A stretch of DNA of 64,000 nt from Patescibacteria group bacterium (GTDB lineage Bacteria; Patescibacteriota; Minisyncoccia; Phycocordibacterales; UBA2100), in contig JBBTSD010000001.1 in the NCBI GenBank assembly GCA_038064835.1, positions 100,406-164,405 on the forward strand. Direction: 5' to 3'. Both the position numbers and the translations under genes were made by a program. How positions within the stretch are numbered: the stretch's first letter is position 1; each line of letters starts with the position of its first letter. The notes below the pieces were generated by a model. The model was not told where the DNA came from, ran no database searches, and saw only the letters and a program-made list of their open reading frames with translations. Positions 15,116-54,621 of this stretch are shown here, in pieces.

Positions 15116-16126
15116 ATGACGCGAATCCTCGTATTGGCAGTGCTTGCACTGCTTTTTGCCACCCCCGCCATGGCCGCTGACACGGTGACATTGACCTGTG
15201 AAAGGGTCCTGGGCTGGTTCTCGTGGATGGGCTTCCTCAAGACTCTCGGCGTCACGGCGCTCACGGTCGGCATCGGCGGCCTCTTCTGGCACTGGCTCGT
15301 TCCAATCGTTACTGCGCTCTGGAAGGTGCTCGAGAAGGTCATCGATATCGCGGCACTCCTCGCGAGCGCCGCACTGATTGCGAGTGGCCACATCACTCCC
15401 GATGCCTACAAGCTCTGGCCGGTCTTGGGCGGGTCTATCGCATTCGGCGCGAGCACCCTGCTCTTCATCGTCCTGCGTAATATCAAGGGCACCAATCCTG
15501 CAGGCCTCTACGCTTTCCTGGCACTCGTCTGGGGTGGCGTCGCGGTGTTCTACGGCATGAGCGAAGTCGGCTTTCTGACGATGGCGGCTGTCATGGGCGT
15601 CCTCGGCTATACCGTCGTCGTCTCGCCGTTCTGCTACGGCTTCGGCTTCAAAGATGACGACCAGATTGCGACTGGAAGCTCGGCTGCGCTCCTGATCCTC
15701 TCAGCTTACACGGTGCAACATATCTTCTTCCCTGGCGCTCCTGCTTGGGTAAAGGTCTTTGCACCAGGCGCGTTCTGGCTTGGGTCGCTGGTGTCGTTCA
15801 CCGGCATTCTAATCATGTCGAATGTCTGGTACGGACGGGGAGCGGAGCGCTCGAACTACGGCCTCATGCAAGCGGTTGCCCTCGTCATCTATCTGGGCGG
15901 CGTCTTCGCCGGCATGACCTTCGGCATCAATCCGCTCGCGGGCATGGCCGGCTTCTTCTTCGTCTTCTGGGTCGCGGCCAAGTTCATCGAGATCCCGACG
16001 GAGAAGTGGACCGGCTTCTACCTCAAGCTGACTCTGATGGGGGCGTTCCTCTCTGGCGTGTGGTGGATTGGCCACCAGAACGAAGCCCACATCATCAAAT
16101 ACCTCACGACGACGCTCCCGATATGA
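15116..16126 (+). CDS. GC-rich polytopic membrane protein of unknown function, inserted inside the ribosomal-protein operon
   Basis: Start at ATG 15116 after GGATGGAG (listed ORF 15029..16126). Signal peptide MTRILVLAVLALLFATPAMAA, then at least 8 hydrophobic helices. GC is visibly higher (about 60%) than the flanking roughly 50% GC ribosomal genes. Confidence 0.5.
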   Translation: MTRILVLAVLALLFATPAMAADTVTLTCERVLGWFSWMGFLKTLGVTALTVGIGGLFWHWLVPIVTALWKVLEKVIDIAALLASAALIASGHITPDAYKLWPVLGGSIAFGASTLLFIVLRNIKGTNPAGLYAFLALVWGGVAVFYGMSEVGFLTMAAVMGVLGYTVVVSPFCYGFGFKDDDQIATGSSAALLILSAYTVQHIFFPGAPAWVKVFAPGAFWLGSLVSFTGILIMSNVWYGRGAERSNYGLMQAVALVIYLGGVFAGMTFGINPLAGMAGFFFVFWVAAKFIEIPTEKWTGFYLKLTLMGAFLSGVWWIGHQNEAHIIKYLTTTLPI

Positions 16127-16149
16127 GCGTGCACTGAGGTAGAACAAGG

Positions 16150-16172
16150 GCCCCGGGATCATTCCCGGGGCC
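16150..16172. terminator. GC-rich hairpin between convergent genes
   Basis: ccccgggatcattcccgggg, perfect 8-bp stem. Confidence 0.45.
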
Positions 16173-16180
16173 TTCTCATG

Positions 16181-16558
16181 TTAGGTACTCATCTTTGTTT
16201 TCGGTTTCGTTGGGTAGATGAGCCATGCATCCTCTCCGGTCTCCAAGTAGATACACTGTTCACCGAGGATAAACGCTACCTGGGCAAGGAATTTTTCCAA
16301 AACCGGTATTTTTTCCTTCCCGTTGAATGCCACGCTGTACAGGCGGTGTTCCCCGTAGAACATCTCTTGGTCGGCACCTGTCCAATAGCCAAAAATGTTG
16401 CCGGCGGTTACCGTAAATCCGCCGAATTGAGCGATCAAAAAATGCTGGATCGCATCCTCTGCGGTTTGCCGTTTTGTTTCATCCCACCAACTTTTGAGTT
16501 TGAGGGAAGGGAGCAGGAAGACAGCCGGTCTTCCCAGACTCACGCGCTCATATTTCAT
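16181..16558 (-). CDS. Hypothetical 125-aa protein (downstream member of a two-gene antisense pair inside the r-protein cluster)
   Basis: The ORF overlaps the upstream gene by 11 nt. No recognisable motif. Confidence 0.4.
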   Translation of the reverse strand: MKYERVSLGRPAVFLLPSLKLKSWWDETKRQTAEDAIQHFLIAQFGGFTVTAGNIFGYWTGADQEMFYGEHRLYSVAFNGKEKIPVLEKFLAQVAFILGEQCIYLETGEDAWLIYPTKPKTKMST

Positions 16559-17009
16559 TGGCGGCCCTCGTTTTTGTCATGAGTTCCAGAAGGACCTTTG
16601 CTTCCACATCAAACAAGTGGAGACGCTCCTCACAGTACCGGCGCACATCCTCTATGTACAAGCCGTTCCAGGGCGAACCTATGCTAGATATGTCCACAAC
16701 GAGCGGACCACCCAGGCTTGCGACTGGGTACATATCGAGCGCAAGTGCCGGATGATCTGGTGTGTGCATGCGATAGAGCCATGAATGCTCTTGGCCAATG
16801 CGGCCGAAGTAACCGGTTGCCACGCGCCATTCTGAAAATGTCTCCGGCCACCTTTGTTTCATGTAGCGTACAATACCGTGACATGACCAGAGGCCTTCCG
16901 GTTGTATGCCTAGTGGCGCCGGTGGAAGTCTGCCCAATTGCAAGCGCACACTGGCTACCATCTCGCGGAGTCCTTTCGGTGCCCCATAGAATTCAAGGGC
17001 TGTTTTCAT
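16548..17009 (-). CDS. Hypothetical 153-aa protein (upstream member of the antisense pair)
   Basis: Start at ATG 17009, preceded by AGGAGG 8 nt upstream (listed ORF extends to 17048). No recognisable motif. Confidence 0.4.
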   Translation of the reverse strand: MKTALEFYGAPKGLREMVASVRLQLGRLPPAPLGIQPEGLWSCHGIVRYMKQRWPETFSEWRVATGYFGRIGQEHSWLYRMHTPDHPALALDMYPVASLGGPLVVDISSIGSPWNGLYIEDVRRYCEERLHLFDVEAKVLLELMTKTRAANEI

Positions 17010-17108
17010 GGTGTTCCTCCTGCTGTACTCACGCGATAGTAGGCGCATTGTTTGACAATTGCAAGGATTACGCCTATTATTCCGTTCACGCCGTCTGGCG
17101 CTGTTTTT

Positions 17109-17447
17109 ATGGCAAGATCAGTAAAAAAGGGTCCCTTTGTGGACGCAAAACTCGCAAAGAAAGTAGCGGCGCGTAAGCCCGGTGCTGGCTCTATAAAGAC
17201 CTGGGCACGACGCAGCCAGATTCCACCCGAGTTTGTCGGCTATACTTTTGGCGTACATAATGGCAAATTGCATGTCGATGTGCTCGTCACCGAAGAAATG
17301 GTAGGTCATCGTCTTGGCGAATTTTCTCCGACCACTCGGTTCGGTCGTCATGGAGGCAAGATGCAAAAGGAGATCGAAACACAAAAGAAAGAGGCTGAAA
17401 TCGCTGCAGCAAAGTCCGCTAAGGCCGCCACCACCGAGAAGAAGTAA
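17109..17447 (+). CDS. rpsS: 30S ribosomal protein S19
   Basis: [15 protein letters not shown]...[17 protein letters not shown]. Start at ATG 17109. Confidence 0.9.
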
Positions 17448-17452
17448 TTTCT

Positions 17453-17866
17453 ATGAAAGCGACACTTTCCAATTTCCAGCAATCGCCTCGCAAGGTCCGT
17501 CTTGTGGCAGATTTGGTGCGCGGAAAGGAGCTCCCTCGTGCACGCACATTGCTCGCTTTTGCCGAGAAGAAGTCTGCTGAGGCACTTCTGAAGCTCCTCG
17601 ATTCTGCAGTTTCAAACGCACGCACAGGCGGTGTTTCTGCCGAAGGCCTTTTTGTGAAAGACATCTGCGTGAACCAAGGGATTTCCATGAAGCGCTTTAT
17701 GCCGATGGCTCGTGGCCGCGCCAATCCATATCGCCACCGTCGTAGCACCGTCGTTCTGACACTGGGCACGAAGGCTGTTTCCAAAGACAAGAGTCAAGAA
17801 AAGCCAGTACAAATAGTTGCCCCAAAAAAAGCCAAAAAGACTAGTGCTAAGCGCGCCACAAAATAG
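17453..17866 (+). CDS. rplV: 50S ribosomal protein L22
   Basis: L22-like sequence and position. Confidence 0.9.
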   Translation: MKATLSNFQQSPRKVRLVADLVRGKELPRARTLLAFAEKKSAEALLKLLDSAVSNARTGGVSAEGLFVKDICVNQGISMKRFMPMARGRANPYRHRRSTVVLTLGTKAVSKDKSQEKPVQIVAPKKAKKTSAKRATK

Positions 17867-17877
17867 GTAATAATAAT

Positions 17878-18552
17878 ATGACACATACTGTACATCCATT
17901 TGCACATCGCCTCGGCATTCTGCGCGACTGGAAGTCTCGTTGGTTTGCAAAGACACCTGCCCAATACCGCGCATATCTAAAAATCGACACGCTGATTCGT
18001 GAGTACCTCAAGAAGCGCTTGCGCGGCGGATATGTCACACTCGTGCAAATCGAACGGGGCGAGAAGCAGGTACGCATCAAGATAAAAACATCTCGTCCAG
18101 GTATCATCATCGGCCGTGGTGGCGAAGGTAGCACCAAGCTCGTCAAGGATATCGAGAAGTCCTTGCGTCATTCAGGTATCAAGGCGATTCCCGCAATCAA
18201 GCTCGATATTGAAGAGGTCCGCTCGCCAGAGGCGCAGGCCCCGGTGGTGGCATACATGGTTATCGAAGGTCTTGAAAAGCGCATGCCATTCCGGCGCGTC
18301 CTCAAGCAAACTGTCGAAAAAGTCATGGCCAATCGCGATGTGCAGGGTGTGCGTATCGGTATCTCTGGCCGCTTGGGTGGTGCAGAAATGTCACGCACCG
18401 AAGAGATCAAACGAGGTCGGGTGCCACTCCAGACACTGCGTGCGGATGTTGATTTCGCACGAGACGAAGCCTATCTCCCGTACGGCGTCATCGGCATCAA
18501 GGTGTGGATTTACCGTGGCGATATTTTTGAAGACGACATTGCCAAGAAGTAA
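17878..18552 (+). CDS. rpsC: 30S ribosomal protein S3
   Basis: KH-domain GIIIGRGGEG motif. S3 position. Confidence 0.9.
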   Translation: MTHTVHPFAHRLGILRDWKSRWFAKTPAQYRAYLKIDTLIREYLKKRLRGGYVTLVQIERGEKQVRIKIKTSRPGIIIGRGGEGSTKLVKDIEKSLRHSGIKAIPAIKLDIEEVRSPEAQAPVVAYMVIEGLEKRMPFRRVLKQTVEKVMANRDVQGVRIGISGRLGGAEMSRTEEIKRGRVPLQTLRADVDFARDEAYLPYGVIGIKVWIYRGDIFEDDIAKK

Positions 18553-18560
18553 TAATTAGT

Positions 18561-18980
18561 ATGCTTTTCCCTAAACGACCAAAATATAGAAAGTGGCAGA
18601 ATGATCGCAAGCACCCGACCAAGCTTCTTGCGCTCGATACGCGTGGTATCACTGTTGCGTTCGGCTCGTTTGGCCTGAAAGCTGCTAGTGGTGGCCGTAT
18701 TACCGCAAACCAAATCGAATCTGCGCGCAAGGTAGTCAGTCGTTCGCTCGGTAAGAACGGCAAGATGTGGACACGGATTTTCCCTGATCGACCGCGTACT
18801 ATCAAAGCCGCCGAAACTCCCATGGGCTCAGGAAAGGGTGAGCTCAAGGACTATGTGTTCGAGGTGCGTCCCGGCCGTGTATTGTTCGAGATTGACGGTA
18901 TCACCGAGCCAGTTGCTCGCGAGGCTCTCGTCAAGGCAGGCAAGAAGCTACCAGTTAAGGTGCGTGTGGTTGCACGATAA
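18561..18980 (+). CDS. rplP: 50S ribosomal protein L16
   Basis: MLFPKRPKYRKWQ... L16 N-terminus. Confidence 0.9.
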   Translation: MLFPKRPKYRKWQNDRKHPTKLLALDTRGITVAFGSFGLKAASGGRITANQIESARKVVSRSLGKNGKMWTRIFPDRPRTIKAAETPMGSGKGELKDYVFEVRPGRVLFEIDGITEPVAREALVKAGKKLPVKVRVVAR

Positions 18981-18984
18981 TTGT

Positions 18985-19188
18985 ATGGACATCTCAGATA
19001 TTCGAAAGAAAGCAGATGCAGATATTCGCGTGCTTATCACTGGCTTGCGTGAAGAGTTGCGCGTATTTCGTTTTGGCGGTGCAGGAAGCAGGACACGAAA
19101 TGTAAAAGAGGGACGAGGTCTGCGTCGCCGGATTGCGCGCATGCATACGGTCCTAAAAGAGCGAGAGCTTGAAATTGTAAAGAAATAA
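18985..19188 (+). CDS. rpmC: 50S ribosomal protein L29
   Basis: MDISDIRKKADADIRVLITGLREEL... Start at ATG 18985. Confidence 0.85.
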   Translation: MDISDIRKKADADIRVLITGLREELRVFRFGGAGSRTRNVKEGRGLRRRIARMHTVLKERELEIVKK

Positions 19189-19208
19189 TTGTAGGATGCG
19201 CACTCACT

Positions 19209-19493
19209 ATGAATAAGACTACTGAAACAACAAACGGCGGAAAGACACTGCGAGGTATCGTAGTAAAAGCCGCCATGACAGACACGGCAACCGTTTCGGT
19301 GCGTCGTTTTGTAAAGCACCCAAAGTACAAAAAGTACCTCACTCGTGAGAAGTGCTATTTGGTCCATAATGCGGGCAACAAGGCCCGCGTAGGGGACGCC
19401 GTGGTAATCCGCGAGACTCGCCCTATTTCAAAACTCAAACACTTCACCATCGAATCTATCTCACCTGTCCCAACTGACGATTCGTCAAAATAA
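19209..19493 (+). CDS. rpsQ: 30S ribosomal protein S17
   Basis: GIVVKAAMTDTATVSVRRFVKHPKYKKY is S17-like. Confidence 0.9.
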   Translation: MNKTTETTNGGKTLRGIVVKAAMTDTATVSVRRFVKHPKYKKYLTREKCYLVHNAGNKARVGDAVVIRETRPISKLKHFTIESISPVPTDDSSK

Positions 19494-19494
19494 T

Positions 19495-19869
19495 ATGATT
19501 CAGCCAAACACAGTGGTGAAAATAGCAGACAACTCCGGTGGAAAGATCGGGTTTGTATTCAAGATTCTCGGTGGCTCTCGTCGTCGTTATGCACGCATCG
19601 GAGACGAAGTGGTCATATCTATTCGTGTCGCTGAACCACGCAAGCAGGTGAAAAAGAAAGAGGTTCTTCGTGCGGTCATTGTCCGTCAGCGCCAACCATT
19701 TCGTCGCAGTGATGGCTCCTACATCCGCTTCGATGAAAACGCGGTCGTGATTGTCGACAAGGCCGGCAAGAAAGAGCCTGTTGCCAACCGTGTCTTTGGT
19801 CCGATTCCGCGCGAAGTTGTCGAGCGCGGCTACCAAAAGATCGGTTCTCTGGCACCAGAAGTTCTCTAA
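19495..19869 (+). CDS. rplN: 50S ribosomal protein L14
   Basis: MIQPNTVVKIADNSGGK... L14. Confidence 0.9.
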   Translation: MIQPNTVVKIADNSGGKIGFVFKILGGSRRRYARIGDEVVISIRVAEPRKQVKKKEVLRAVIVRQRQPFRRSDGSYIRFDENAVVIVDKAGKKEPVANRVFGPIPREVVERGYQKIGSLAPEVL

Positions 19870-19874
19870 ACTAT

Positions 19875-20183
19875 ATGAAAATAAAGAAAGGAGATAAAGT
19901 GATTGTGATTGCGGGCAAGGATCGCGGCAAGACAGGCTCGATTCTGCGTGCACTTCCAAAAACCAATCAGGTCATCATCGATGGTATCAATATGGTCAAG
20001 CGCCACCAGCGAGCAAATCGCGCTGGCCGCAAAGGACAGATTATTGAGCAGGCGATGCCACTCCATGCGTCCAATGTGCAGATTGTAGATCCAAAGTCTG
20101 GCAAACCAACCCGCATAAAGATCGACCGCAAAAATGGCAAGTACGCTCGCGTTGCAAAGAAGAGTGGATCAGCCATCGCATAA
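19875..20183 (+). CDS. rplX: 50S ribosomal protein L24
   Basis: KOW motif KKGDKVIVIAGKDRGKTG. Confidence 0.9.
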   Translation: MKIKKGDKVIVIAGKDRGKTGSILRALPKTNQVIIDGINMVKRHQRANRAGRKGQIIEQAMPLHASNVQIVDPKSGKPTRIKIDRKNGKYARVAKKSGSAIA

Positions 20184-20187
20184 TTTT

Positions 20188-20730: not shown

Positions 20731-20802
20731 TATTCACAAGGATGGGTTCGAGAAAGTTGCCAGAGGCAACTTTCTTTCGTAGGGTTACGAAGGATATCGA
20801 TA

Positions 20803-21198: not shown

Positions 21199-21228
21199 GT
21201 TAGTCGCTGTTGACACAGACGGCTCATA

Positions 21229-21256
21229 AAAAAACCGCCGGTTACCCGGCGGTTTT
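21229..21256. terminator. Bidirectional intrinsic terminator between convergent genes
   Basis: aaaaaccgccggttacccggcggtttt with A-run and T-run flanks. Confidence 0.55.
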
Positions 21257-22144: not shown

Positions 22145-22173
22145 GCACAAGCCTTTTTAGGCCCATTTTTCTT

Positions 22174-34685: not shown

Positions 34686-34709
34686 TTGTGCACAGGTGCG
34701 GACGGGCAG
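34686..34709 (+). repeat. 25-nt direct repeat, copy 1 (gttgtgcacaggtgcggacgggcag), upstream of mntA
   Basis: Identical except for 1 nt to 35771-35795. Both copies are followed by (ag)aaagtgc. Confidence 0.5.
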
Positions 34710-34766
34710 GGGGTGCGAGCAGAAAGTGCAATAGACTCAGCTCTTGTTTCGAGCTACGATACTCGA

Positions 34767-35180
34767 ATGAACGAAATGGATACTAAAACAATGGTGGATG
34801 CAGTGCGTCCGATTGCGGAGCGAGCGGGCCTTTCACTGGTCGTGCTTTTTGGCTCGTACGCAACAGGACGGGAGCATGCGCAGAGCGATACCGACATCGC
34901 TGTACTTGCTGAGAGGACTTTTTCACCCAGTGAGCTCGCGACGCTCGCGTACGAACTTTCACAGAATCTCAAGAATTCCTCCATAGACATCTCCGATCTA
35001 CGCACGGGGTCGCCACTTCTGCTGCGTACCGTCGCGCATGATGGAATCGTTTTGTTTGAAAGAGAGCCTCATGCGTTTGCCCTCTTTCAGATGTACGCAT
35101 TCAAGCGTTTTGTGGAAGCGAAACCTCTGAGAGATTTGCGTAGGGCATCGCTCGAACAATTTGTTGCACCAACACTATGA
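34767..35180 (+). CDS. mntA: Minimal nucleotidyltransferase (MNT) antitoxin
   Basis: LFGSYATGREHAQSDTDIAV (GS...DxD Pol-beta-type NTase motif). Start at ATG 34767, because the listed TTG extension would cover the upstream repeat. Confidence 0.65.
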   Translation: MNEMDTKTMVDAVRPIAERAGLSLVVLFGSYATGREHAQSDTDIAVLAERTFSPSELATLAYELSQNLKNSSIDISDLRTGSPLLLRTVAHDGIVLFEREPHAFALFQMYAFKRFVEAKPLRDLRRASLEQFVAPTL

Positions 35181-35599
35181 TGGACATCGCCATTCTCGAA
35201 AGCAAGCTTGCCGACCTTCAGGCGTTTTACAAAGAAATCGTCGTCATAGTATCGGAAGACTCTCTCGACATTATTGCCGACTCACTCAAGCTCCACAGTG
35301 TCGAGAGACTTTTCCAGCTCATTGTCGATACGGCTATTGATATAAACACACATATCATAAGCACCTCAAATGGGGCGGTACCTGATGACTACCAAAGTAC
35401 ATTTATGGTACTTGCCGAAAGAAACATTCTTCCAAAAGAGTTTGCACTACGAATCGCACCATCAGTCGGATTACGAAATCTCGTGGTGCATCGTTACGGA
35501 AAAGTGGACATAAAACGCATGATCGAAGACATCAAAAAGGAGATTGGGCAGTACCAGGAGTATGCAAGGTACATCGTTTCTCATCTTCACCGAGAGTAG
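35177..35599 (+). CDS. hepT: HepT / DUF86 HEPN-domain toxin
   Basis: RNLVVHRYGKVD (Rx4HxY HEPN motif). 4-nt overlap with mntA. Confidence 0.65.
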   Translation: MMDIAILESKLADLQAFYKEIVVIVSEDSLDIIADSLKLHSVERLFQLIVDTAIDINTHIISTSNGAVPDDYQSTFMVLAERNILPKEFALRIAPSVGLRNLVVHRYGKVDIKRMIEDIKKEIGQYQEYARYIVSHLHRE

Positions 35600-38728: not shown

Positions 38729-38791
38729 GTGGTCATAGCGAAAAGTGGCTTAACAAAAAACTGAGCAGAGGCCATTTCTCGCTATGACCAC
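38729..38791 (+). promoter_or_regulatory. Long leader hairpin (about 21-bp stem) in the 5' UTR of the 38858 gene
   Basis: gtggtcatagcgaaaagtggc...gccatttctcgctatgaccac (19/21 complementary). Confidence 0.4.
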
Positions 38792-39514: not shown

Positions 39515-39635
39515 GCTCCTCGGGACTTTAGTCCTTACAGGACCTGTACACCTTTTGAGCGATTTAAGAAAATCGCTCAAAAGGTCTTGAGAAGCTTCAA
39601 GTATTCGCTTCTCACCCTTTGAACTTAGTCCTTAG

Positions 39636-39697: not shown

Positions 39698-40045
39698 CTA
39701 CTTAACCTCTGCAACAACGCGAGCGAATGTCTCGGGATGGTCCTTGGCGAGAGTAGCAAGAATTTTGCGATCCAAGGTAATTCCTTTCTTTTTAAGAGAA
39801 TCGATGAACGAGCTATATGAGCGCAATCCGAGTGCACGAACACCGGCGTTGATACGCACGGTCCAGAGCGCGCGGAACTCACGCTTTTTTGCGCGACGGT
39901 CTCGAAACGCATAGGTTCCTGCCTTGAAAATAGCGTCTTTCGCTGCGCGTTCCTTTTTAGAACGGGCAAAACGATAGCCCTTGACCATCTTAAGGACATT
40001 GCGACGGCGTTTTAGGGTACTGACTCCTCCTTTTACTCGGGCCAT
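39698..40045 (-). CDS. rplT: 50S ribosomal protein L20
   Basis: [19 protein letters not shown]... Confidence 0.9.
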
Positions 40046-40070
40046 ATGATTTAAAAAAATTTACAAAAAG

Positions 40071-40268
40071 CTAGTTGGTGCCGCCTGGCAAAAAGCGAGC
40101 CTTGTCTTTCTTATTAAGAACGAACGGGACAGCGACATTGCGACGGCGTTGCATCTGGCGTCGGCGACCTTCCTTGGCATTAAAATGGTTCTGTCCAGGT
40201 ACGCGCGCAACAACCTTACCTGTGCGGGTAACTCGGAGGCGCTTGGTGAAAGACTTGTTGGTTTTCAT
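40071..40268 (-). CDS. rpmI: 50S ribosomal protein L35
   Basis: MKTNKSFTKRLRVTRTGKV... Confidence 0.9.
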   Translation of the reverse strand: MKTNKSFTKRLRVTRTGKVVARVPGQNHFNAKEGRRRQMQRRRNVAVPFVLNKKDKARFLPGGTN

Positions 40269-40912
40269 GGTGTTTCAGGCTCTTTTTCGACATCGCCGAC
40301 ATCGCCTAGCGGGGACGAAAGGGAGAGTGTAGGGCTCTTCATCGGGGTGCTTGGCACCCAGCGTTTGCCCGTTTTGTCTCGCTCAATCACCACCGAGAGG
40401 CCTTTTAGGCTTTTCTTGATGTCGTCAGCGAGTTTAAAGGATTCTGGGATAATTGCAAGGAATCTCTCGAGGCGATCCTTGAGAAAGTTGAATTCCATGT
40501 ACTTGTAACGACCCCACAAAAACAGGTCGATTTTGACTCGATGACCCTCCCTCAACCACCCGGCCGCTTGGGATGCCTTGAGGTGCATGTCTCGCTCGCC
40601 GGTACCAATCTTGACCTGGGTGGTTTTGGTCTCGGTTACATGGGCCTTGGCCTTTACTTCTTTCCCCTTCTTCTTCATTTCATACTTATATTTGCCCAAA
40701 TCAGCGATTTTGGCGACGGGGGGAGTCGAGGTGCTGGAGATTTCTATCAAATCCAGCCCCAATTCGCGTGCCTTTGCGAGGGCTTCATCAGATGAAATGA
40801 TGCCAAAGTTTTCACCGTCAGGTCCGACAACGCGTAGTTCGCGAGCACGGATAGCATCGTTAATCCGCAAACGGTCCTTTTCCTTGGCAGTTGTGTATTT
40901 CGTGAATCCCAT
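40265..40912 (-). CDS. infC: Translation initiation factor IF-3 with a roughly 35-aa acidic/Pro-rich C-terminal tail
   Basis: INDAIRARELRVVGPDGENFGIIS...LDLIEIS; the IF-3 C-terminal domain ends at VIERD, followed by a KTGKRWVPSTPMKSPTLSLSSPLGDVGDVEKEPETP tail. Confidence 0.85.
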   Translation of the reverse strand: MGFTKYTTAKEKDRLRINDAIRARELRVVGPDGENFGIISSDEALAKARELGLDLIEISSTSTPPVAKIADLGKYKYEMKKKGKEVKAKAHVTETKTTQVKIGTGERDMHLKASQAAGWLREGHRVKIDLFLWGRYKYMEFNFLKDRLERFLAIIPESFKLADDIKKSLKGLSVVIERDKTGKRWVPSTPMKSPTLSLSSPLGDVGDVEKEPETP

Positions 40913-47870: not shown

Positions 47871-48037
47871 GGGGCGAATATAGCATATGATGCGTGGAAT
47901 TTAGAAAAGAAGCAAAAAGCTGTGTTCACGAAAGAGTTCCAATCAAGTTATATCCCCCTTGTCCTACATCTTGCAAAAATGCCAGGATTTGAGTGCTACA
48001 ATTTGTCTTATGAGGCTCCAGAAGCTCTCTTTTTCTC

Positions 48038-51000
48038 GTGCCTAAGATTTTAAAATTACTTTGCTTATTACTGCTAGTAATCACCACACTCGGGCCCGTG
48101 GGTGTTTTGTATGCTGCTCCAGGTGTGCCAACCATCTTGAGTTTCCAAGGGAGACTTACTGATTCATCAGGTAATCTTTTGGGGGGCTCTGGGACAGGCT
48201 ATTATTTCAAGTTTTCAATATGGGATTCACCGACGGTTGGTTCAGGAAATCGTCTCTGGCCGACAAGTGCGCCAGGAAGTGTTACAACGACAGTCCGGCA
48301 AGGAGTGTTTACTGTTAATGTTGGCGACACGGCAAATGGATTCCCCGACGCACTTACTTATGCGTTTGATTCTGAAACTATCTACCTACAAGTCGAGGTA
48401 TCATCAAACGGATCATCGTACGAAACCCTTTCCCCTCGTCAGCAAATTGCCGCATCAGCATTTGCGCGCGTCGCGGGAGCGGTAAGTGGGACGGGGCAAT
48501 CAGCAATTGGAACAACAACGCCACTAGCGAATACGGTCCTCACTGTTGAGGCGACATCATCTATCGCGACACCGCTCAGTATTCGCGGGGCTCCGAACCA
48601 GTCTGGCAGTCTTTTAACTATTTTGAGTTCTGTAGGATCGTCGCTTTTCTCGATCGGTAGTTCAGGTAGTCTGACAGCGCTCGCGGGCGCACTCTTCGGG
48701 AATGCTTCATCGACTCTTTTTTCAACACTTGACGGTTTGTATGTTGGACGGACGGCAACAACTACTATCCTTGGTTCGGCAACTTCTACTTTCGGCGCAG
48801 GTGTCTCCACTACCCGCCTCGAAACCACTTCCGCCTCGTCAACTATCAACGGCCTTCGTGTCACTGGGAACGGCTTGCAGATCGCCAGTCTCGTAAACTG
48901 TGCTGAAGCACTGGAAACAGATGCAAGCGGCAACATCGTCTGTGGCACTGATGCCACTGCCGCAGGTGCTGCGGATCCGTTCACTTTCGCAACGAACTAC
49001 GGCATAACCAACGCCGCCACTTCGTCACCGCTGTGGGCATTAGCAGGCATCAATGCATCCTCAACATCACATTTCGCCACTTTTGACGCTGTTGCAGGAA
49101 CCACTACCAACTTCGCCATCTCAAACATCGCCAGCTCTCTTCTTAAAACAAATGCAACAGGAGGAATCGTCCCTGCTATCGCTGGTACTGATTACCTCAC
49201 CAGCTCAAGCATATTCAGCTACCTCTTCCCATCAAATGCCACCAGTACTGCACTCTCATTCACCGGAGGCATCACTACCACCAACGCCTCCACCACCAAC
49301 CTCTCCGGCAACACTCTCGCCATCGGCGGCACCGCCACCACCACCATTGCAAACACCGGAGCCATCACTACACCAACCTTGACGATAGGTACGCTTACGG
49401 GTTTTCTGAAAGCAACAGCAGGAGTTGTTGCGGCTGCAGCCGTCAATGTGGCGGCAGATATTACTGGCATTCTCCCCACCGCAAACGGCGGCACCGGCTG
49501 GGGTAATGTACAAGCAAACACAGTTCTTCTTGGTAATGGTACTGGTGCGCTTGCCACCACTACAGCGGGTGCGAACGGGCAGGTCCTCGCCCTCGTCGGT
49601 GGTGTCCCAACATGGACTGCAACAACTACCTTATCCACTATCTCAGGAACCCTTGGTGTCGGTACTGGCGGTACCGGACAGACTACTTTTGCATATGGTC
49701 TGCTATCTTCACCTGGCGGTACCGACGCTCTTACTACTATCAGCACCTCGTCGCTTGGTCTGCTTACTACTGATATTACCGAAGGATCGAATCTCTACTA
49801 CACAACCACTCGTTTTGATAATCGCTTGTCAGCAACTACCTCACTTCCAAATATCACTACACTTACAAATCTTTCGATATCTGCGACACAACTCAGTAAT
49901 TTCGGTACCCCGTTCTACCAATTCTTTTCTGCAACTACGACAGACGCCCTTACACAAGGGAGTACCAACAAGTACTACAGCGACCCGCTCGTCCAAGCCT
50001 TTGTGCACGCGTCTTCTACTATTCCGAAAACATATACCGCAAACACTTTTACGGGGGCAAATACTTTCTCTTCGGCGTTAACTCTCAGTGGTCTGAACGG
50101 CCCTCTTGATGCAAGGAACGGTGTCGTTGGTGCTACCACTTCAGTTGGCGTTCTTTATGGAGGTACCGGACTCACCTCTGCGCCGTCAAACGGAAGCATC
50201 CTGCTAGGGAACTCTTCGGGTGGCTACTCAATTTCAGCCACCTCCTCGCTCGGTATCGCACTTGCTGACACCACCGGCACACTTGCGGTTGCACGAGGTG
50301 GCACAGGAGCAACCACACTCTCCGACCTCATCACCCTTGGCACACACACCTCTGGCAACTACCTCGCCACGCTCACCAATGCCGGCGGTCTCACCATCGC
50401 GAACTCAGGAGCAGAGACTGCAGCAGTCACCGCAGCACTCGATCTCACCAATGCAAACACCTGGACAGGGAAGCAGAACTTCTACGGCACTGCCTCATCA
50501 ACACTGTTCTCGGCGAACCGCGCTTATTTCGGAGGGACAGCGACAACATCAATCTCTGATGCGGGTGTACTCACTTTGGCCGGCCTTACCTCGACCCTAC
50601 TTAAAGCAGACAACAGTAATAATCTTGTCGCCGCTGTGGCAGGTGTTGATTATTCAAACTTCGCATATCTGTTTCCCGGCAACGCCACGACGACGGCACT
50701 CACTTTTTCGAACGGGATTTTATCATCTGCCTCCACCACAATCGGAGCAGGAACACAGGCGACAGGGCTCACCGTATCGGGAGGAGCAACGACGACGGGA
50801 AACTTGATTGTGCAGGGAACAGGAACATCGACATTTTCAGGTGGTCTGCAGGCAACGAATGTATACGCAACTGCCACATCAACGATGGCTGGAATCATAT
50901 CGCAGTCGATTGTTCCTAATGGGGATGCAACCTACGATTTAGGGTCTGCTACGAATCGTTTTAGAGACCTCTACCTATCTACCGCATCACTTCACCTTGA

Positions 51001-52885
51001 ATCGACAGCGGGCGAAACTGGTTCAGCAAAACAATGGAAGTTTGGTATCGATACCGATAATGGACAACAGACGGGAACCTCAACAGGATTTTTCCGTATT
51101 CAAGAAGGGAGCTCAGACATGTTTTATATAAATCATGGCGGCCAAATTGGTGTGGGAGTCAAAGATCCTCGTGCACGGTTGCACACAAAAGGAAACCCGT
51201 TCCTTTCAGGGTTTAGCGCAGGGACTATCTCTAGCTCGGGCACGGCTGTAACAGGAAGCGGTACAGGTTTCTTGTTCGGTTCGAACAAAATTAATGTGGG
51301 GGATCAGATTCTTTCGGATGGACAGATTCGTACTGTGACATCCGTGGTGAACAATACGAGTCTTGTTGTTGACTCGGCATTTTCCCCTGCACTAAGTGCG
51401 CACACTTACCAATTTCAGCAACCAATAGCACGATTTGACACCAGTGCAGGTGACACGCGTTTTATTATCGGCCCTGGTGGAAATGTGGGCATTGGTGATT
51501 TAAATCCACAAGGTCTTTTCTCTGTCGGTGCAGGTGATGCGTTCTTTATAAATTCACTTGGAACGGTTGCGAGTGGCACATGGAATGGACAGCGAATTGG
51601 TGCGCTCTACGGCGGTACGGGCTCCACAACACTTTCAGGAATCCTGATCGGCAACGGTGTTAATCCAGTTGGGACGCTTACTGTTGGGTCAGGCCTTTCG
51701 CTTACGGGCACAACGCTCTCGACGAGCGGTGCGGGAATCACCTCAATCGGCTCGTCTGGTCAGCAACAGACAGGTGGAACGCAAGCATTTGCGACATCAA
51801 CAAGTGTAACAAATGGGCTTGTCTCAGGGATAACAATCGTTGGAAATAGCAATACTCACACATTCACTCCATCACTGTCAGGAGTACTGACTGTTGCAGG
51901 AGGCGGCACCGGAGGCACCTCGTTCTCCTACGGTCTCGTCTCCTCACCAGGAGGCACCAGTGCACTCACCAACATCGCGACCTCCTCGCTCGGTCTCCTC
52001 ACTACCGATGTCGCTGAAGGCACCAACCAGTACTACACAGACACCCGTGTGAACACCTATATCAACGCCTCCACCACCATTCCCAAGACATACACTGCCA
52101 ACACATTCACCAACACCAACTCGTTCACCAGTGCACTGATGGCAACAGGAGGATTCCTCTCAAGCGCATCATCCACCATCAATGGCTCACTCGTCGTCAC
52201 CGGTACTGCCACCTCCACCACGCTCGCCGTCACCGGAGTCACCTCATCACTCTTGAAAACAAACTCACTCGGACAAGTCGTCGCCGCAGTCGCTGGCACT
52301 GACTACACAAACTTCGGCTACCTCTTCCCCGCAAATGCCACCACCACCGCACTCTCATTCACCGGAGGCATCACTACCACCAACGCCTCCACCACCAACC
52401 TCTCCGGAAACACCCTCGCCATCGGCGGCACCGCCACCACTTCTATATCAAACACCGGCGTCCTCACACTCCCCGTTGCACTCAGTGCGTCATCAGGTGG
52501 TACGGGCATCTCGTCCGTCTCTGCCGCCCAAATCTTGCTGGGGAACTATGCGGGCACTGGCTGGCAACAACTCGCCACTTCCTCCCTCGGTCTCCTCACC
52601 ACGAATGTCGCAGAGGGAAGCAATCAATATTTCACCAACGCACGCGTACAAACATATCTCGACTCCGTCACCAAAGGATTCTTCTTTGCCACCACTTCCG
52701 CTGACTACTGGGAGACACAGCAGACAGCGCGCTCTGCAGACGACCTCACCAACAACAGTATTGAAGATCTCTCTAGTGAACGAGTAAAGTCGGCTGTCGA
52801 GACTTATCCCGAGTTTTATCTTGTCAAAAGCGACTGGTCTCTCGAAAACATTGTTGCGAAAATTAAAGAAATGCTTGTCGTCTAG
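48038..52885 (+). CDS. Giant (1615 aa) secreted Gly/Thr/Ser/Ala-rich repetitive surface protein (fibre/adhesin-like)
   Basis: Signal peptide MPKILKLLCLLLLVITTLGPVGVLYAAPG. Three copies of a module ...TTISTSSLGLLTTD(I/V)(T/A)EG(S/T)N(L/Q)YYT.TR... and two near-identical copies of ...DYLTSSSIFSYLFPSNATSTALSFTGGITTTNASTTNLSGNTLAIGGTATT.... Recurrent GGTG motifs. Confidence 0.6.
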   Translation: MPKILKLLCLLLLVITTLGPVGVLYAAPGVPTILSFQGRLTDSSGNLLGGSGTGYYFKFSIWDSPTVGSGNRLWPTSAPGSVTTTVRQGVFTVNVGDTANGFPDALTYAFDSETIYLQVEVSSNGSSYETLSPRQQIAASAFARVAGAVSGTGQSAIGTTTPLANTVLTVEATSSIATPLSIRGAPNQSGSLLTILSSVGSSLFSIGSSGSLTALAGALFGNASSTLFSTLDGLYVGRTATTTILGSATSTFGAGVSTTRLETTSASSTINGLRVTGNGLQIASLVNCAEALETDASGNIVCGTDATAAGAADPFTFATNYGITNAATSSPLWALAGINASSTSHFATFDAVAGTTTNFAISNIASSLLKTNATGGIVPAIAGTDYLTSSSIFSYLFPSNATSTALSFTGGITTTNASTTNLSGNTLAIGGTATTTIANTGAITTPTLTIGTLTGFLKATAGVVAAAAVNVAADITGILPTANGGTGWGNVQANTVLLGNGTGALATTTAGANGQVLALVGGVPTWTATTTLSTISGTLGVGTGGTGQTTFAYGLLSSPGGTDALTTISTSSLGLLTTDITEGSNLYYTTTRFDNRLSATTSLPNITTLTNLSISATQLSNFGTPFYQFFSATTTDALTQGSTNKYYSDPLVQAFVHASSTIPKTYTANTFTGANTFSSALTLSGLNGPLDARNGVVGATTSVGVLYGGTGLTSAPSNGSILLGNSSGGYSISATSSLGIALADTTGTLAVARGGTGATTLSDLITLGTHTSGNYLATLTNAGGLTIANSGAETAAVTAALDLTNANTWTGKQNFYGTASSTLFSANRAYFGGTATTSISDAGVLTLAGLTSTLLKADNSNNLVAAVAGVDYSNFAYLFPGNATTTALTFSNGILSSASTTIGAGTQATGLTVSGGATTTGNLIVQGTGTSTFSGGLQATNVYATATSTMAGIISQSIVPNGDATYDLGSATNRFRDLYLSTASLHLESTAGETGSAKQWKFGIDTDNGQQTGTSTGFFRIQEGSSDMFYINHGGQIGVGVKDPRARLHTKGNPFLSGFSAGTISSSGTAVTGSGTGFLFGSNKINVGDQILSDGQIRTVTSVVNNTSLVVDSAFSPALSAHTYQFQQPIARFDTSAGDTRFIIGPGGNVGIGDLNPQGLFSVGAGDAFFINSLGTVASGTWNGQRIGALYGGTGSTTLSGILIGNGVNPVGTLTVGSGLSLTGTTLSTSGAGITSIGSSGQQQTGGTQAFATSTSVTNGLVSGITIVGNSNTHTFTPSLSGVLTVAGGGTGGTSFSYGLVSSPGGTSALTNIATSSLGLLTTDVAEGTNQYYTDTRVNTYINASTTIPKTYTANTFTNTNSFTSALMATGGFLSSASSTINGSLVVTGTATSTTLAVTGVTSSLLKTNSLGQVVAAVAGTDYTNFGYLFPANATTTALSFTGGITTTNASTTNLSGNTLAIGGTATTSISNTGVLTLPVALSASSGGTGISSVSAAQILLGNYAGTGWQQLATSSLGLLTTNVAEGSNQYFTNARVQTYLDSVTKGFFFATTSADYWETQQTARSADDLTNNSIEDLSSERVKSAVETYPEFYLVKSDWSLENIVAKIKEMLVV

Positions 52886-52911
52886 CGTGAGGAACTTTAT
52901 TTTTTGAGAGT

Positions 52912-53400
52912 ATGACTGTCGAGATTCTCAACGACTATCGATGCTCGTGTGGGAAGCTTCTTTTTCGCGGGATGGTACTCACGGGGAGTATTGAAATCAA
53001 ATGTCGCTATTGCAAACGAGTGGAAACAGTCGATGGTTTGATGGAAAAAGGATCTGACCCTGACCGCTACACCCTCATAATCGGAAGAGAAGGGGAAATT
53101 TACAATTCGACACAAGAAGCCTCGCGGGCTCTCGGATATCTGCATTCAGAGCTATCTGCAAGGCGTGTTCAAGATATTGTCTTATTGCCTCATGACGAGG
53201 CATACCAATCTATTCTTCAAAAGCTTGATGGTGGTCAGGTATCAGTCCTTTTCCATTCGTTTGTGAAGCATAAAAATCGTGCCATGATTCCTGTGCAAAT
53301 AACAGCGTGTTTATTTTCAACTCCAGATGGTCAGTGTATCCTTTTTAATATAGAGCATAAAACGGTACGGAACAGAGCACATCGGCTTCAAGAAGCATAG
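52912..53400 (+). CDS. Com-like zinc-ribbon plus PAS-like domain protein
   Basis: N-terminal CSCGKLLF...CRYCKRV (Mu Com-type 4-Cys ribbon), then a PAS-like fold segment. Confidence 0.4.
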   Translation: MTVEILNDYRCSCGKLLFRGMVLTGSIEIKCRYCKRVETVDGLMEKGSDPDRYTLIIGREGEIYNSTQEASRALGYLHSELSARRVQDIVLLPHDEAYQSILQKLDGGQVSVLFHSFVKHKNRAMIPVQITACLFSTPDGQCILFNIEHKTVRNRAHRLQEA

Positions 53401-53451
53401 TTTTTTTGTCCGACAAAGTAAAAACACCCGCTTGCGCGGATGTTTTTACTT

Positions 53452-53617
53452 TGTGGAGATGGCGGGAATTGGTCACCAGTATTTTTCCTGACGGAAAAAT
53501 CTCGCGACCCCGGCTCGCGGTTTTTGCCTTTCCTACGCGTTGCTCCGGAAAACAAAAACAACGCTGCGCCTTTCAATTCCCGTCGAAAGGTGCGCAGGCA
53601 CCTTTCTCCATCTCCCC
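53452..53617 (-). ncRNA. Truncated tandem ssrA-like copy (tmRNA-like 5' domain plus duplicated 3' acceptor end and terminator)
   Basis: Minus strand 5'-GGGGAGATGGAGAAAGGTGCCTGCGCACCTTTCGACGGGAATTGAAAGG... (tmRNA 5' motif UUCGACGGGA) ... CCAATTCCCGCCATCTCCACA-3'. The last 50 nt, including terminator aaaaacatccgcgcaagcgggtgttttt, are near-identical to the main ssrA 3' end. The T-stem is not complementary. Confidence 0.4.
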
Positions 53618-53655
53618 ATACGCAAAAACACCCGCTGGCGCGGATGTTTTTACTT

Positions 53656-54045
53656 TGTGGAGATGGCGGGAATTGAACCCGCGTCCAAAGGAGGAGTAGC
53701 TGATCGGTGTACACAAGGTAGTTCATTTGATTTTGTTTAAACGCAGGATGTGTGAAATGAGCAAAATCATCACGCGTCGAGCTTTCTTTCTTTAGTCAGT
53801 ATCTTGAAGCATCAGACACTGACGAATCCGGCATATATGACATGTACGGCATCTTGTCGGATGAAGATGAGTACACGGCCGCTTAGGCTAATGCGTAAGC
53901 GAAGCTGAGATCTTTCACCTGAATCGGTGAAAGGAACCCCCGTGCGGTTTTATTTGCACTTAGATTTTGAACAGTTTAAAGAAGATGTTCACTTCTCTTG
54001 TGCCTTTCAAGCTCTCGAATCTCCCTGTCGAAGCCAATCATCCCC
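53656..54045 (-). ncRNA. ssrA: tmRNA (SsrA), standard one-piece form
   Basis: Minus strand 5'-GGGGAUGAUUGGCUUCGACAGGGAGAUUCG... and 3'-...GGACGCGGGUUCAAUUCCCGCCAUCUCC-A. The acceptor stem GGGGAUG/CAUCUCC has G3-U70. The T-arm is GCGGG-UUCAAUU-CCCGC. Both ends closely resemble the E. coli tmRNA ends as recalled. An internal frame ...DLSFAYALA-UAA (stop revcomp at 53883-53885) is a plausible tag. smpB lies 0.6 kb upstream on the same strand, and a terminator follows at 53625-53652. Confidence 0.7.
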
Positions 54046-54176
54046 CGTGAGATACCAAATCTGTTGTGCGTTGAGTCTCGAGCATAACGGTAATGTGTGT
54101 TCTCTTTTACTCTGCATTATGTCGGGCTTACGAAGTCCGACAGGTTGTTTAATATCTCATGGGGAAGGACTCGCTA

Positions 54177-54205
54177 CCATGTTGGACTTCGTAAGTCCAA
54201 CATGG
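54177..54205. repeat. Perfect 13-bp-stem hairpin ccatgttggactt-cgt-aagtccaacatgg (GGACTT...AAGTCC family)
   Basis: Related hairpins at 54121-54141 (gtcgggcttacgaagtccgac), 54599-54619 (gttcgactt-cgt-aagtcgaac) and 39521-39533 (gggactttagtcc). Confidence 0.5.
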
Positions 54206-54300
54206 TACGGGTGGCGAGTTGTAGCGAGTTGTAGAAAACGAATGCTTGAGTGTGGAGAGGAGCTGTGGCGGCTCCTCCCTGTAGTGCTGCGTGGGCTGGG

Positions 54301-54534
54301 TTAGCGGAACAAGTGTCCCGCGAGGCCGAGGGGGCTGCCCGCGTAGGCGGCATCCTCGTCATCGCGCGTGGGCTCGATGAAGGCGCGAGCCTTCGCGCTC
54401 CCGCCGCCGAGCGTGTCGTAGCGGGCGTCACGAGTGGCGTAGGTGGCCTTGCGGGCCTCCTCGCGCAGGTCGCGTTCGACAGCGCGTTTCCAATCGCGGT
54501 CCATGCAGTAACCAACATTCCCATTCATAGTCAT
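54301..54534 (-). CDS. Small (77 aa) GC-rich hypothetical protein in a hairpin-flanked mini-cassette between smpB and ssrA
   Basis: AAGGAG RBS 8 nt upstream of ATG 54534. Body about 65% GC. Sequence MTMNGNVGYCMDRDWKRAVERDLREEARKATYATRDARYD... has no recognisable motif. Confidence 0.35.
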   Translation of the reverse strand: MTMNGNVGYCMDRDWKRAVERDLREEARKATYATRDARYDTLGGGSAKARAFIEPTRDDEDAAYAGSPLGLAGHLFR

Positions 54535-54598
54535 TGCAAACACTCCTTGGTTCACTTGGTTGCCACACTTAAGCATTCGTTTATTGTCAAAAATCTAT

Positions 54599-54619
54599 GT
54601 TCGACTTCGTAAGTCGAAC
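54599..54619. terminator. Hairpin of the GGACTT..AAGTCC family immediately after the smpB stop; likely the smpB terminator
   Basis: gttcgacttcgtaagtcgaac. On the minus strand it is followed by atagattttt. Confidence 0.45.
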
Positions 54620-54621
54620 GG

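Follow-up and report, generated by a model that had tools for sequence, protein, structure and literature searches.

Repetitive extragenic palindromic (REP) sequences, together with bacterial interspersed mosaic elements (BIMEs), are short stem-loop palindromes of 20-40 nt with a tetranucleotide of the GTAG or CGTC type at the foot of the stem, and in the REPtrons of E. coli, Pseudomonas and Stenotrophomonas their copies flank the cognate Y1/HUH gene for the transposase TnpA-REP, or REP-associated tyrosine transposase (RAYT). To our knowledge, REP/RAYT systems have been studied almost only in proteobacteria. Diversity-generating retroelements (DGRs), whose target genes carry a variable region (VR) corresponding to a template repeat (TR), are exemplified by the Mtd protein of phage BPP-1 and TvpA of Treponema, and have been reported as abundant in genomes of the candidate phyla radiation. 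A further class includes the intervening sequences of rRNA and the fold-backs of hok-type mRNAs, in which the complementary ends of an RNA segment form a long stem. Here we compare with these systems a stretch of 64,000 nt from a Patescibacteria group bacterium (contig JBBTSD010000001.1, positions 100,406 to 164,405; below, the window), in which three small GC-rich genes (genes 1, 2 and 3) adjoin loci of the translation apparatus, and copies of a 25-nt palindrome lie on both sides of gene 3, in the spacer between smpB and the transfer-messenger RNA (tmRNA) gene ssrA.

The three GC-rich genes are mutually unrelated, and the palindromes located by one of them are not a shared delivery vehicle. 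We consider it probable that the finding is composed of independent things that share a high G+C content at third codon positions (GC3) and adjoin translation genes by chance in a window rich in such genes. More tentatively, we propose the existence of a Patescibacterial REP-type system, formed by a near-invariant 25-nt hairpin and a divergent Y1 transposase, and, separately, of a structured cassette slot between smpB and ssrA, kept by one clade, in which small open reading frames (ORFs) are swapped between lineages.

The window has a GC content of about 50%, and the ORFs in a crude set of 79 non-overlapping window ORFs, used as the baseline, have a GC3 of 0.50 ± 0.068. Only gene 1 (0.75) and gene 2 (0.77) exceed the mean of this set by more than two standard deviations (sd), while gene 3, scored separately on the minus strand, has a GC3 of 0.79, a GC1 of 0.67 and a GC2 of 0.53; no other ORF is an outlier in composition. 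The window includes rplC-rplD-rplW-rplB, rpsS-rplV-rpsC and onward, infC-rpmI-rplT, and smpB with the tmRNA gene; a scan of it against Rfam at the gathering threshold returned the tmRNA, one tRNA and no other match. Gene 1 is located between rplB (14151-14999) and rpsS (17112-17447) in the S10 operon, gene 2 is convergent with rplT-rpmI-infC (39698-40912, minus strand), and gene 3 lies between smpB and the tmRNA gene. An earlier sequence-only reading had named these three genes as GC outliers at these loci, and in both respects it was right. It had further proposed that one family of palindromes borders two of the three genes and may reflect a specific way of acquiring them; this link between palindromes and acquisition failed every test applied, as described below.

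The consensus of the palindrome is ATGTTCGACTT-CGT-AAGTCGAACAT, with an 11-bp stem and a 3-nt loop that reads CGT or ACG. Within the window, the core GACTTCGTAAGTC (at most one mismatch, stem context) occurs only at 54125, 54185 and 54603, and a 23-mer consensus with at most three mismatches has two matches versus none in 100 shuffles. The readable stretch of this genome amounts to 78 kb (the window plus 8.6 kb on its left and 5.3 kb on its right), and the three copies found in it, designated A, B and C, are all at the smpB-ssrA locus. The proposed single family therefore holds for the palindromes at 54121, 54177 and 54599, whereas the one at 39521, with another core, a 5-bp stem and a TTTA loop, does not belong to it. 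The TTGGAC/GTCCAA variant of copy B was also seen in three relatives (L019, L031, L048; L numbers denote loci fetched from sequence collections). Copy C was scored as terminator-like and probably doubles as the smpB terminator. The leaders of the tmRNA precursor in L067, L075 and L068 can otherwise be aligned with that of the window, and what they lack at this point is precisely the 26 nt of copy A; to judge from these alignments, its presence and absence in the leader is the strongest sign that the unit may be mobile.

We scanned one genome per species (185,579 species) with GTYSGACTTCGTAAGYCSRAC and obtained 56 loci in 27 assemblies, 25 of which are Patescibacteria or unclassified. Fifty of the 56 loci are labelled Saccharibacteria, Nomura-, Kaiser-, Adler- or Parcubacteria, Paceibacterota or Patescibacteria, and four carry the label 'bacterium' only; in the other two (Chitinophagales and Kiritimatiellae) the stem is not formed and the matches are probably due to chance. 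Several genomes are multi-copy, with as many as 18 or so on the contigs fetched from a single assembly. The alignment of 87 oriented copies gave the 25-nt consensus, and no position outside the 25-mer is conserved. Changes in the stem are paired, appearing in both arms (TTGGAC/GTCCAA, TCCGAC/GTCGGA, ATGGAC/GTCCAT), and the loop is found in either orientation. According to crude gene calls, 54% of the copies are intergenic versus 17% non-coding DNA (p = 2e-14), and some copies are paired with a spacing of 48-60 nt. No tmRNA gene was found near the hairpin at any of the 56 loci from other genomes, and a general clustering of hairpins near tmRNA is thereby ruled out. One copy (L030, 7035-7055) lies about 80 nt 3' of rplT (7134-7475), the neighbourhood that in the window corresponds to the 3' flank of gene 2.

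In eight relatives (L008, L025, L029, L034, L055, L056, L057, L060), copies of the 25-mer are located about 30 nt upstream of, within (near codon 50) and about 50 nt downstream of a gene encoding about 225 amino acids. The only NCBIfam match of this gene is the REP-associated tyrosine transposase NF047646 (E = 1e-8 to 1e-11). The residues H78 and H80 of the HxH motif, and Y138 and N142 of a Y-x3-N motif, are invariant in 11 homologs. An example of the Y1 gene that carries the 25-nt hairpin in its in-frame region near codon 50 is provided by L025 (3619-4399). The internal copy would be translated as MFDLRSRT, MFDFVSRT or VGLTKSNK in different genomes, being read in different frames; what is kept is therefore the DNA element and not a peptide.

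Like REP and BIME sequences, the 25-mer is short, palindromic (with compensatory variants in both arms), dispersed and mostly extragenic, is sometimes paired, and inserts as a discrete block; and as in REPtrons, its copies flank a single Y1/HUH gene with HxH and catalytic tyrosine motifs. We conclude that the 25-mer behaves as a REP-like element, with a REPtron-like gene layout in relatives, and the earlier guess of a REP-like nature is upheld by the dispersed, mainly intergenic distribution, the bracketed Y1/HUH gene and the 26-nt insertion of copy A. In the mechanism that we propose, the Y1 enzyme would cut and join the hairpin as single-stranded DNA and so disseminate it, and in this window three copies would have landed in the transcribed smpB-ssrA spacer, with gene 3 not having been brought by them. 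Such a compact combination of hairpin and Y1 transposase over lineages of the candidate phyla radiation would extend REP/RAYT to very small genomes, and the 25-mer with the Y1 protein would offer a simple substrate-enzyme pair. We found no paper tying REP/RAYT to Patescibacteria in the searchable literature, an absence that is no proof of novelty.

Several observations weigh against the REP-type system. The 87 copies lack a conserved tetranucleotide of the GTAG or CGTC type at the foot of the stem. Unlike known REP and BIME sequences, the 25-mer has a near-perfect 11-bp stem with a 3-nt loop, is almost identical over distant lineages of the phylum, and appears to number tens and not hundreds of copies per genome; unlike in REPtrons, a third copy lies within the transposase ORF. 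The match of the transposase to Pfam Y1_Tnp (PF01797) is weak at 24.8 bits against a cut-off of 23, and its NF047646 scores of 34-45 bits fall below the curated equivalog cut-off of 80 that marks RAYT proteins. A profile search of the Protein Data Bank (PDB) with the Y1 protein returned only ISDra2 TnpA and E. coli TnpA-REP (4er8), both weakly (E of about 0.1-0.15). In addition, the 78 kb of this genome contain neither a second locus of the 25-mer nor a Y1 transposase.

The same conservation could be read differently, with the palindromes being binding sites of a dimeric regulator, or simple terminators, that are conserved for function and are not mobile. The striking conservation of the 25-mer over distant lineages and the T-run after copy C agree with this, and the half-sites GTTCG/CGAAC presumably recall the LexA boxes of Gram-positive bacteria with their order swapped. 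We nevertheless regard this account as improbable. The arms co-vary (TTCGAC, TTGGAC, TCCGAC, ATGGAC), which argues for a stem and not for two independent half-sites; the exact 26-nt unit is polymorphic for presence and absence; copies occur inside coding regions in different frames, and most have no T-run; and the linkage of the 25-mer to the Y1 transposase gene is consistent.

The second part of our proposal concerns the spacer itself. Among 80 sampled loci of SmpB relatives (44-71% SmpB identity), the tmRNA gene directly follows smpB on the same strand in 52 loci according to ARAGORN, and the same holds for 8 of 11 further loci analyzed with Rfam. The median gap is about 48 nt in relatives versus 576 nt in the window, where gene 3 is enclosed by a 20-nt inverted repeat that the sequence-only reading had overlooked. 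Five relatives (L067, L071, L076, L089, L130) likewise have an expanded gap with a small ORF, preceded by a Shine-Dalgarno sequence, inside a long-range inverted repeat of 16-22 pairs, compared with maxima of 11-16 pairs in shuffled expanded spacers. The inner ends of the stems are always GTGG/CCAC, a GC-rich hairpin precedes the 3' arm, and in several relatives the 5' arm begins right after the smpB stop codon. With six modules anchored on the inner ends, 94% of the cells are paired and 14 of 18 pairs vary on both sides, a result equalled by none of 500 shuffles. The enclosed ORFs are mutually unrelated, encoding hydrophobic peptides of 16-44 aa (L067, L076, L083) or acidic or charged proteins of 52-112 aa (L071, L089, L130).

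A variable ORF within a long-range stem recurs between smpB and ssrA, an architecture supported by covariation for which we found no described counterpart in the literature. Three relatives (L067, L071, L076) have the same module without any 25-mer hairpin; gene 3 is what this genome carries in a structured slot that predates the hairpins, which were inserted into the slot later at three points. The stem of 18-22 bp would loop the ORF out of the co-transcript of smpB and ssrA and would serve either for processing or to insulate folds, and the ORF content of the slot would be exchanged by recombination between relatives, with gene 3 coming from a GC-richer one. From the alignments alone, the role of the stem may lie in processing, fold insulation, translation control or recombination, and may also be exerted at the DNA level. 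If it is a recombination or processing site, it would represent a new way of exchanging small genes within the trans-translation operon. The slot bears on the formation of the tmRNA precursor in these organisms and on the turnover of tiny genes.

By analogy only, the slot resembles rRNA intervening sequences and hok-type fold-backs: it is a segment of a stable-RNA unit that may carry an ORF, its complementary ends form a long stem, and its structure is conserved while its sequence is not. It differs from them in occupying the smpB-ssrA spacer instead of the interior of an RNA gene and in the heterogeneity of its ORFs, with no antisense RNA identified. Three points tell against the slot as we describe it. 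The arms were chosen as the best inverted repeat per spacer, and the pairing statistics partly reflect this choice; the stem mismatches have no sense-strand bias towards G-U pairs, so that the arms may act at the DNA level, as terminal repeats; and gene 3 might even be an ORF without function, a possibility that its GC3 periodicity and ribosome-binding site speak against.

A different nature of these inverted repeats, not as a processing stem but as termini of small ORF-carrying mobile elements or as type I toxin fold-backs that repeatedly target the smpB-ssrA spacer, is unlikely. The ORFs in the slot are unrelated between close relatives, about half of them encode short hydrophobic peptides like type I toxins, an ORF resembling GIY-YIG nucleases is bracketed in the same way in two relatives, and the mismatches lack a strand bias. 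However, conservation is found at the inner ends (GTGG/CCAC), whereas termini bound by a transposase predict conserved outer ends; no target-site duplication is present and there is no second copy in 78 kb; the divergence of the arms tracks SmpB identity, as under vertical descent; and gene 3 itself is hydrophilic. A miniature inverted-repeat transposable element (MITE) carrying gene 3 was rejected on related grounds: it has inverted repeats, but the ends conserved among relatives are the inner and not the outer ones, and neither a flanking duplication nor a second copy was found in 78 kb or at any fetched locus.

Two observations in relatives concern the same spacer. In L094 (3451-3813) and L116 (3475-3846) the spacer contains the GIY-YIG-like ORF of 87-95 aa, the first and last codons of which form a long-range inverted repeat of 18-25 bp. 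In L067 (510-1005), the closest SmpB relative, two stem-bracketed units stand in tandem with a second copy of the smpB 3' end (CTTTGAAAACTAAATAG) between them, an arrangement that suggests repeated insertion at the spacer.

The features of the window are collected in Table 1. One public annotation extends gene 3 to 91 aa, with its start at 54576. A word-indexed search, and phmmer run in full against 1.84 billion representative proteins, each returned only gene 3 itself. The arrangement of smpB, gene 3 and hairpins also occurs in Hainich groundwater and in two assemblies from Logan. In the predicted RNA fold of the spacer (z = -8.4), hairpin C, the 20-bp stem, hairpin B and the leader helix with hairpin A in its loop are all formed, and the leader helix is kept in L067, L068, L075 and L083.

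Table 1. Coordinates of the features discussed, in window positions
Feature	Start	End	Strand	Description
Gene 1	15116	16126	+	336-aa polytopic membrane protein with a signal-peptide-like N-terminus; GC 0.59, GC3 0.75
GC-rich hairpin, terminator-like (putative function)	16148	16172		GGGCCCCGGG-N6-CCCGGGGCC; between gene 1 and the convergent 125-aa ORF
Two overlapping ORFs	16181	17048	-	125 aa (16181-16558) and 166 aa (16548-17048); GC3 0.57-0.58
Gene 2 upstream region	38689	38857	+	promoter-like TTGACA...TACAAT; 21-bp leader stem 38729-38749 / 38771-38791
Gene 2	38858	39514	+	218-aa DGR variable (target) protein; GC 0.60, GC3 0.77
VR equivalent	39371	39495	+	3' end of gene 2; aligns to the TR of L001
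Palindrome GGGAC-TTTA-GTCC	39521	39534	+	GGGACTTTAGTCC; 7 nt past the gene 2 stop; candidate post-VR hairpin
tmRNA (ssrA)	53655	54045	-	ARAGORN; Rfam RF00023, 128 bits
Leader helix	54032	54175	-	AGTCCTTCCCCATGAGATA (54148-54175) pairs with the tmRNA 5' end and leader (54032-54059)
REP-like hairpin A	54117	54142		TGTCGGGCTTACGAAGTCCGACA, one G-T pair; 26-nt insertion in the loop of the pre-tmRNA leader helix
REP-like hairpin B	54175	54207		perfect 15-bp stem; 25-mer core 54179-54203 (ATGTTGGACTTCGTAAGTCCAACAT)
3' arm of the long-range stem	54236	54255	-	preceded by a GC-rich hairpin, 54262-54287
Gene 3	54301	54534	-	77-aa hydrophilic ORFan; AAGGAG ribosome-binding site; GC 0.66, GC3 0.79
5' arm of the 20-bp long-range stem (smpB-ssrA direction)	54563	54582	-	inverted repeat, 95% complementary, one mismatch
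REP-like hairpin C	54597	54621		ATGTTCGACTTCGTAAGTCGAACGG; directly past the smpB stop codon; a minus-strand T-run follows
smpB	54622	55161	-	coordinates of the longest possible smpB reading frame; Pfam SmpB, E = 2.4e-43; 146 aa in the public annotation

Two possible sources of information on gene 3 were discarded. A 78-aa ORF at the same position in L089 has a similar C-terminal motif, but homology finds no support in BLASTP (E = 0.43). The 97% identical Logan contig L064 is uninformative about purifying selection, and possibly chimeric, since it is identical through gene 3 and diverges within the tmRNA. In detail, L064 (1-1298) and the window (53876-55173) differ in one base through smpB, gene 3 and the three hairpins, and from about nt 23 of the tmRNA the identity falls to about 78%, pointing to either a recombination breakpoint in ssrA or an assembly chimera. 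On the other side of the tmRNA there is a direct repeat of 52 nt (53420-53471 / 53624-53675; 98% identical, 204 nt apart) that includes the last 20 or so nt of the tmRNA and the terminator; by its position it looks like the scar of an element that integrated at the ssrA 3' end and was mostly deleted. An island integrated at ssrA and carrying gene 3 was ruled out, as this repeat encloses only 152 nt located 3' of ssrA, whereas gene 3 is 5' of it, and there is no integrase.

Gene 2 belongs to a family of DGR target proteins that is widespread in Patescibacteria. Its homologs number 1643 (62-77% identity), and those with a name represent Vogel-, Uhr-, Niyogi- and Giovannonibacteria as well as further Parcubacteria. 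Behind the L001 homolog come first a repeat of its final 129 nt and next an RVT_1 gene; in L061, a complete Giovannonibacteria genome, and in L062 the order is target, repeat, bAvd and RVT_1. VR and TR differ at TR adenines in 18 of 18 (L001), 16 of 17 (L061) and 18 of 18 (L062) positions, and such a restriction of the mismatches to adenines is the signature of a diversity-generating retroelement. The second copy in L063, in turn, is a paralogous variable region and not a template. In the alignment of the family, the last 45 or so residues alternate between an invariant scaffold and hypervariable positions, and the family has a C-type-lectin fold with C-terminal variable residues, TvpA and Mtd being among the matches. 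Thus gene 2 shares with BPP-1 Mtd, Treponema TvpA and the DGRs of the candidate phyla radiation the fold and the placement of the variable residues, and its homologs share the adenine-specific VR/TR differences, bAvd and reverse transcriptase (RT). In these relatives the adjacent template repeat, Avd and RT would rewrite the last 45 or so codons at template adenines.

Unlike in those systems, gene 2 stands alone beside rplT: no TR, Avd or RT was found within the 78 kb, and no Pfam model matched the protein. Remote DGR targets are known, so that the absence of an RT nearby is compatible with membership in the target family. Either gene 2 is served remotely by a retroelement at another place in the genome, or it is an orphan. 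The upstream sequence is shared with the homolog in L001, and nucleotide homology with L063 begins at about 38689, some 170 nt before the start codon; the promoter-like site and the leader stem are kept in L001 and L063, the target apparently moves together with the signals for its expression, and the leader could be a regulatory RNA.

The palindrome at 39521, which the sequence-only reading had counted among the hairpins bordering the GC-rich genes, is best understood in this context. As a window-wide family it is not above chance, since in 24 of 100 shuffled sequences its pattern is matched as many times. The sequence right past the gene 2 stop (CTCGGGACTTTAGTCC) is identical in L001, and L063 has GGAC-TCCG-GTCC there; the palindrome is conserved at gene 2 homologs and is therefore a part of the conserved 3' flank of gene 2. 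In phage BPP-1, downstream hairpins are required for retrohoming, and the consensus of phage DGRs is a GC-rich stem of 7-10 bp with a GRNA tetraloop, 4-34 bp past the VR (PMC3240598). The small hairpin of gene 2, about 25 nt past the VR, is in the right place, but its 5-bp stem and TTTA loop depart from that consensus.

In each of the five genomes examined, the GC content of the gene exceeds that of the host locus by 0.10 to 0.15. At the DNA level, gene 2 shares 78-81% identity with the copies in Vogelbacteria and Giovannonibacteria, versus about 72% for ftsH compared with the closest SmpB relatives, and the genomic contexts of the homologs differ between genomes. The high GC is a family trait and not a mark of recent arrival, and these comparisons are best explained by spread of the gene as a cassette among Patescibacteria. 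Two further observations were made around gene 2. On its 3' side, two copies of ACTT(T)AGTCCTTA (39524-39536 and 39623-39634) enclose a perfect 16-bp palindrome (39550-39585); in relatives the second of these motifs follows the post-VR hairpin immediately, so that the window may have gained about 86 nt at this point. On the upstream side, at a distance of 3 kb, a nucleotidyltransferase (Polbeta/MNT) and a HepT-like RNase (34686-35599) form a toxin-antitoxin module.

Gene 1 is a part of a 2.1-kb insertion at the rplB-rpsS junction that contains three ORFs, not one as the earlier reading had it: gene 1 and two on the minus strand. Promoter-like sites precede gene 1 (TTGACT-16-TATCAT) and rpsS (TTGACA-17-TATTAT), and the latter would restart the operon. 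No match for gene 1 was obtained in Pfam, PHROG, NCBIfam or PADLOC, and the 125-aa and 166-aa ORFs had no match in the family libraries and only noise in sequence searches of PDB. Seven homologs of gene 1 (43-53% identity) occur in four unrelated contexts. On four contigs the homologs are 0.03-0.06 richer in GC than their own contigs, compared with an excess of 0.09 for gene 1 here, and the closest homolog has a GC of 0.586 and a GC3 of 0.757 on a contig of 54% GC. Because this nearest homolog has the same composition on a contig of 54% GC, gene 1 and the two ORFs were probably acquired horizontally from a GC-richer relative. Against this stands the absence of a visible mechanism at the rplB-rpsS locus and of an identified donor; a horizontal origin, judged from composition and patchy distribution only, is nonetheless the likeliest account of gene 1. 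The AlphaFold2 model of gene 1 is all-helical with a pLDDT (predicted local distance difference test) of 58, too poor for identification by a fold search.

With regard to composition, the three genes are similar to genomic islets, that is, compositionally atypical genes acquired by horizontal transfer. Their GC3 deviates by 3.7-4.3 sd from that of the neighbours, they are patchily distributed among relatives, and gene 1 has its own promoter-like and terminator-like signals. Unlike islets, neither gene 1 nor gene 2 is accompanied by an integrase, by direct repeats on its flanks or by an attachment site of the tRNA type, and the sole repeat resembling an attachment site (53420-53471 / 53624-53675) is across ssrA from gene 3. 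Other common sources were considered and discarded. A shared origin via contig L003, which carries ORFs of 77, 336 and 218 aa, is a coincidence, as tblastn relates only the 336-aa ORF. As to a phage origin, the viral contig collection contains no relatives of genes 1 and 2, and the PHROG search produced nothing meaningful; as to membership in a defence system, PADLOC returned no matches for genes 1-3 and the two ORFs beside gene 1.

The mechanism that the sequence-only reading had favoured, in which one REP- or MITE-like hairpin element mediates the acquisition of foreign GC-rich genes at conserved loci, is very unlikely and largely refuted for this window. It is true that 25-mer hairpins are present on both sides of gene 3 and that they are mobile REP-like units, and REP clusters are known hotspots of insertion and recombination in proteobacteria. 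However, the hairpins are found at one gene only: the surroundings of gene 1 contain no 25-mer palindrome and no flanking repeats above noise, and the palindrome of gene 2 is a different one that belongs to the retroelement flank. Relatives have the same stem-bracketed ORF slot without hairpins, and copy A lies within the tmRNA leader and not at a cassette boundary. The suggested association of palindromes with GC-rich DNA also failed among 82 hairpins of relatives, the 300-nt flanks of which have a mean GC slightly below that of the locus; a flank at least 0.08 above the locus GC was found for 2.4% of these hairpins versus 4.0% of random positions. This result has corrective value, in that composition outliers beside palindromes are not to be read as one mechanism. 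The outliers here comprise the target of a retroelement, an acquired membrane protein of an ordinary kind, and an ORFan that occupies a conserved, structured slot.

The sequence-only reading had also raised the possibility that the GC-rich genes were captured from the host of an episymbiont, for example a high-GC actinobacterium. A GC3 of 0.75-0.79 does fit a donor of 58-62% GC, but all the homologs of gene 2 with a named source are Patescibacteria, the homologs of gene 1 are on small contigs that bear no taxonomic label and whose gene content points to no host phylum, gene 3 lacks homologs altogether in the protein set searched, and Patescibacteria richer in GC exist (locus GC up to 0.57-0.64). 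Such an origin is thus extremely unlikely.

A more serious alternative, which we judge possible but doubtful, is that the high GC is intrinsic to each gene family, or constrained by RNA or protein, and is uninformative on transfer. The GC excess of the homologs of genes 2 and 1 over their surroundings accords with it, as does the location of gene 3 within a heavily structured RNA. On the other hand, the excess is concentrated at third codon positions, the excess of gene 1 in this window surpasses that of its homologs, and for gene 2 both the differing contexts and a DNA similarity between relatives higher than for ftsH fit transfer.

Some other features of the region were observed. The genes rpsJ and tuf are located just outside the left end of the window (about 2.6 kb of the left stretch, L147), and rplC starts at 12337. 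The block of about 13.5 kb between rpsJ and rplC, which includes window positions 1-12336, interrupts the S10 operon a second time and over a far greater length, without being rich in GC; it encodes YcaO, nitroreductase, PQQ-type beta-propeller, rhodanese and DsbA-like proteins and contains two AMP-binding/CapK-like genes. An ORF of 1615 aa (48038-52885) without a Pfam match has an unusually high GC2 of 0.58 and a GC skew down to -0.43. Finally, the tRNA of the window (59453-59525) is a tRNA-Ile with the anticodon TAT, which is uncommon in bacteria.

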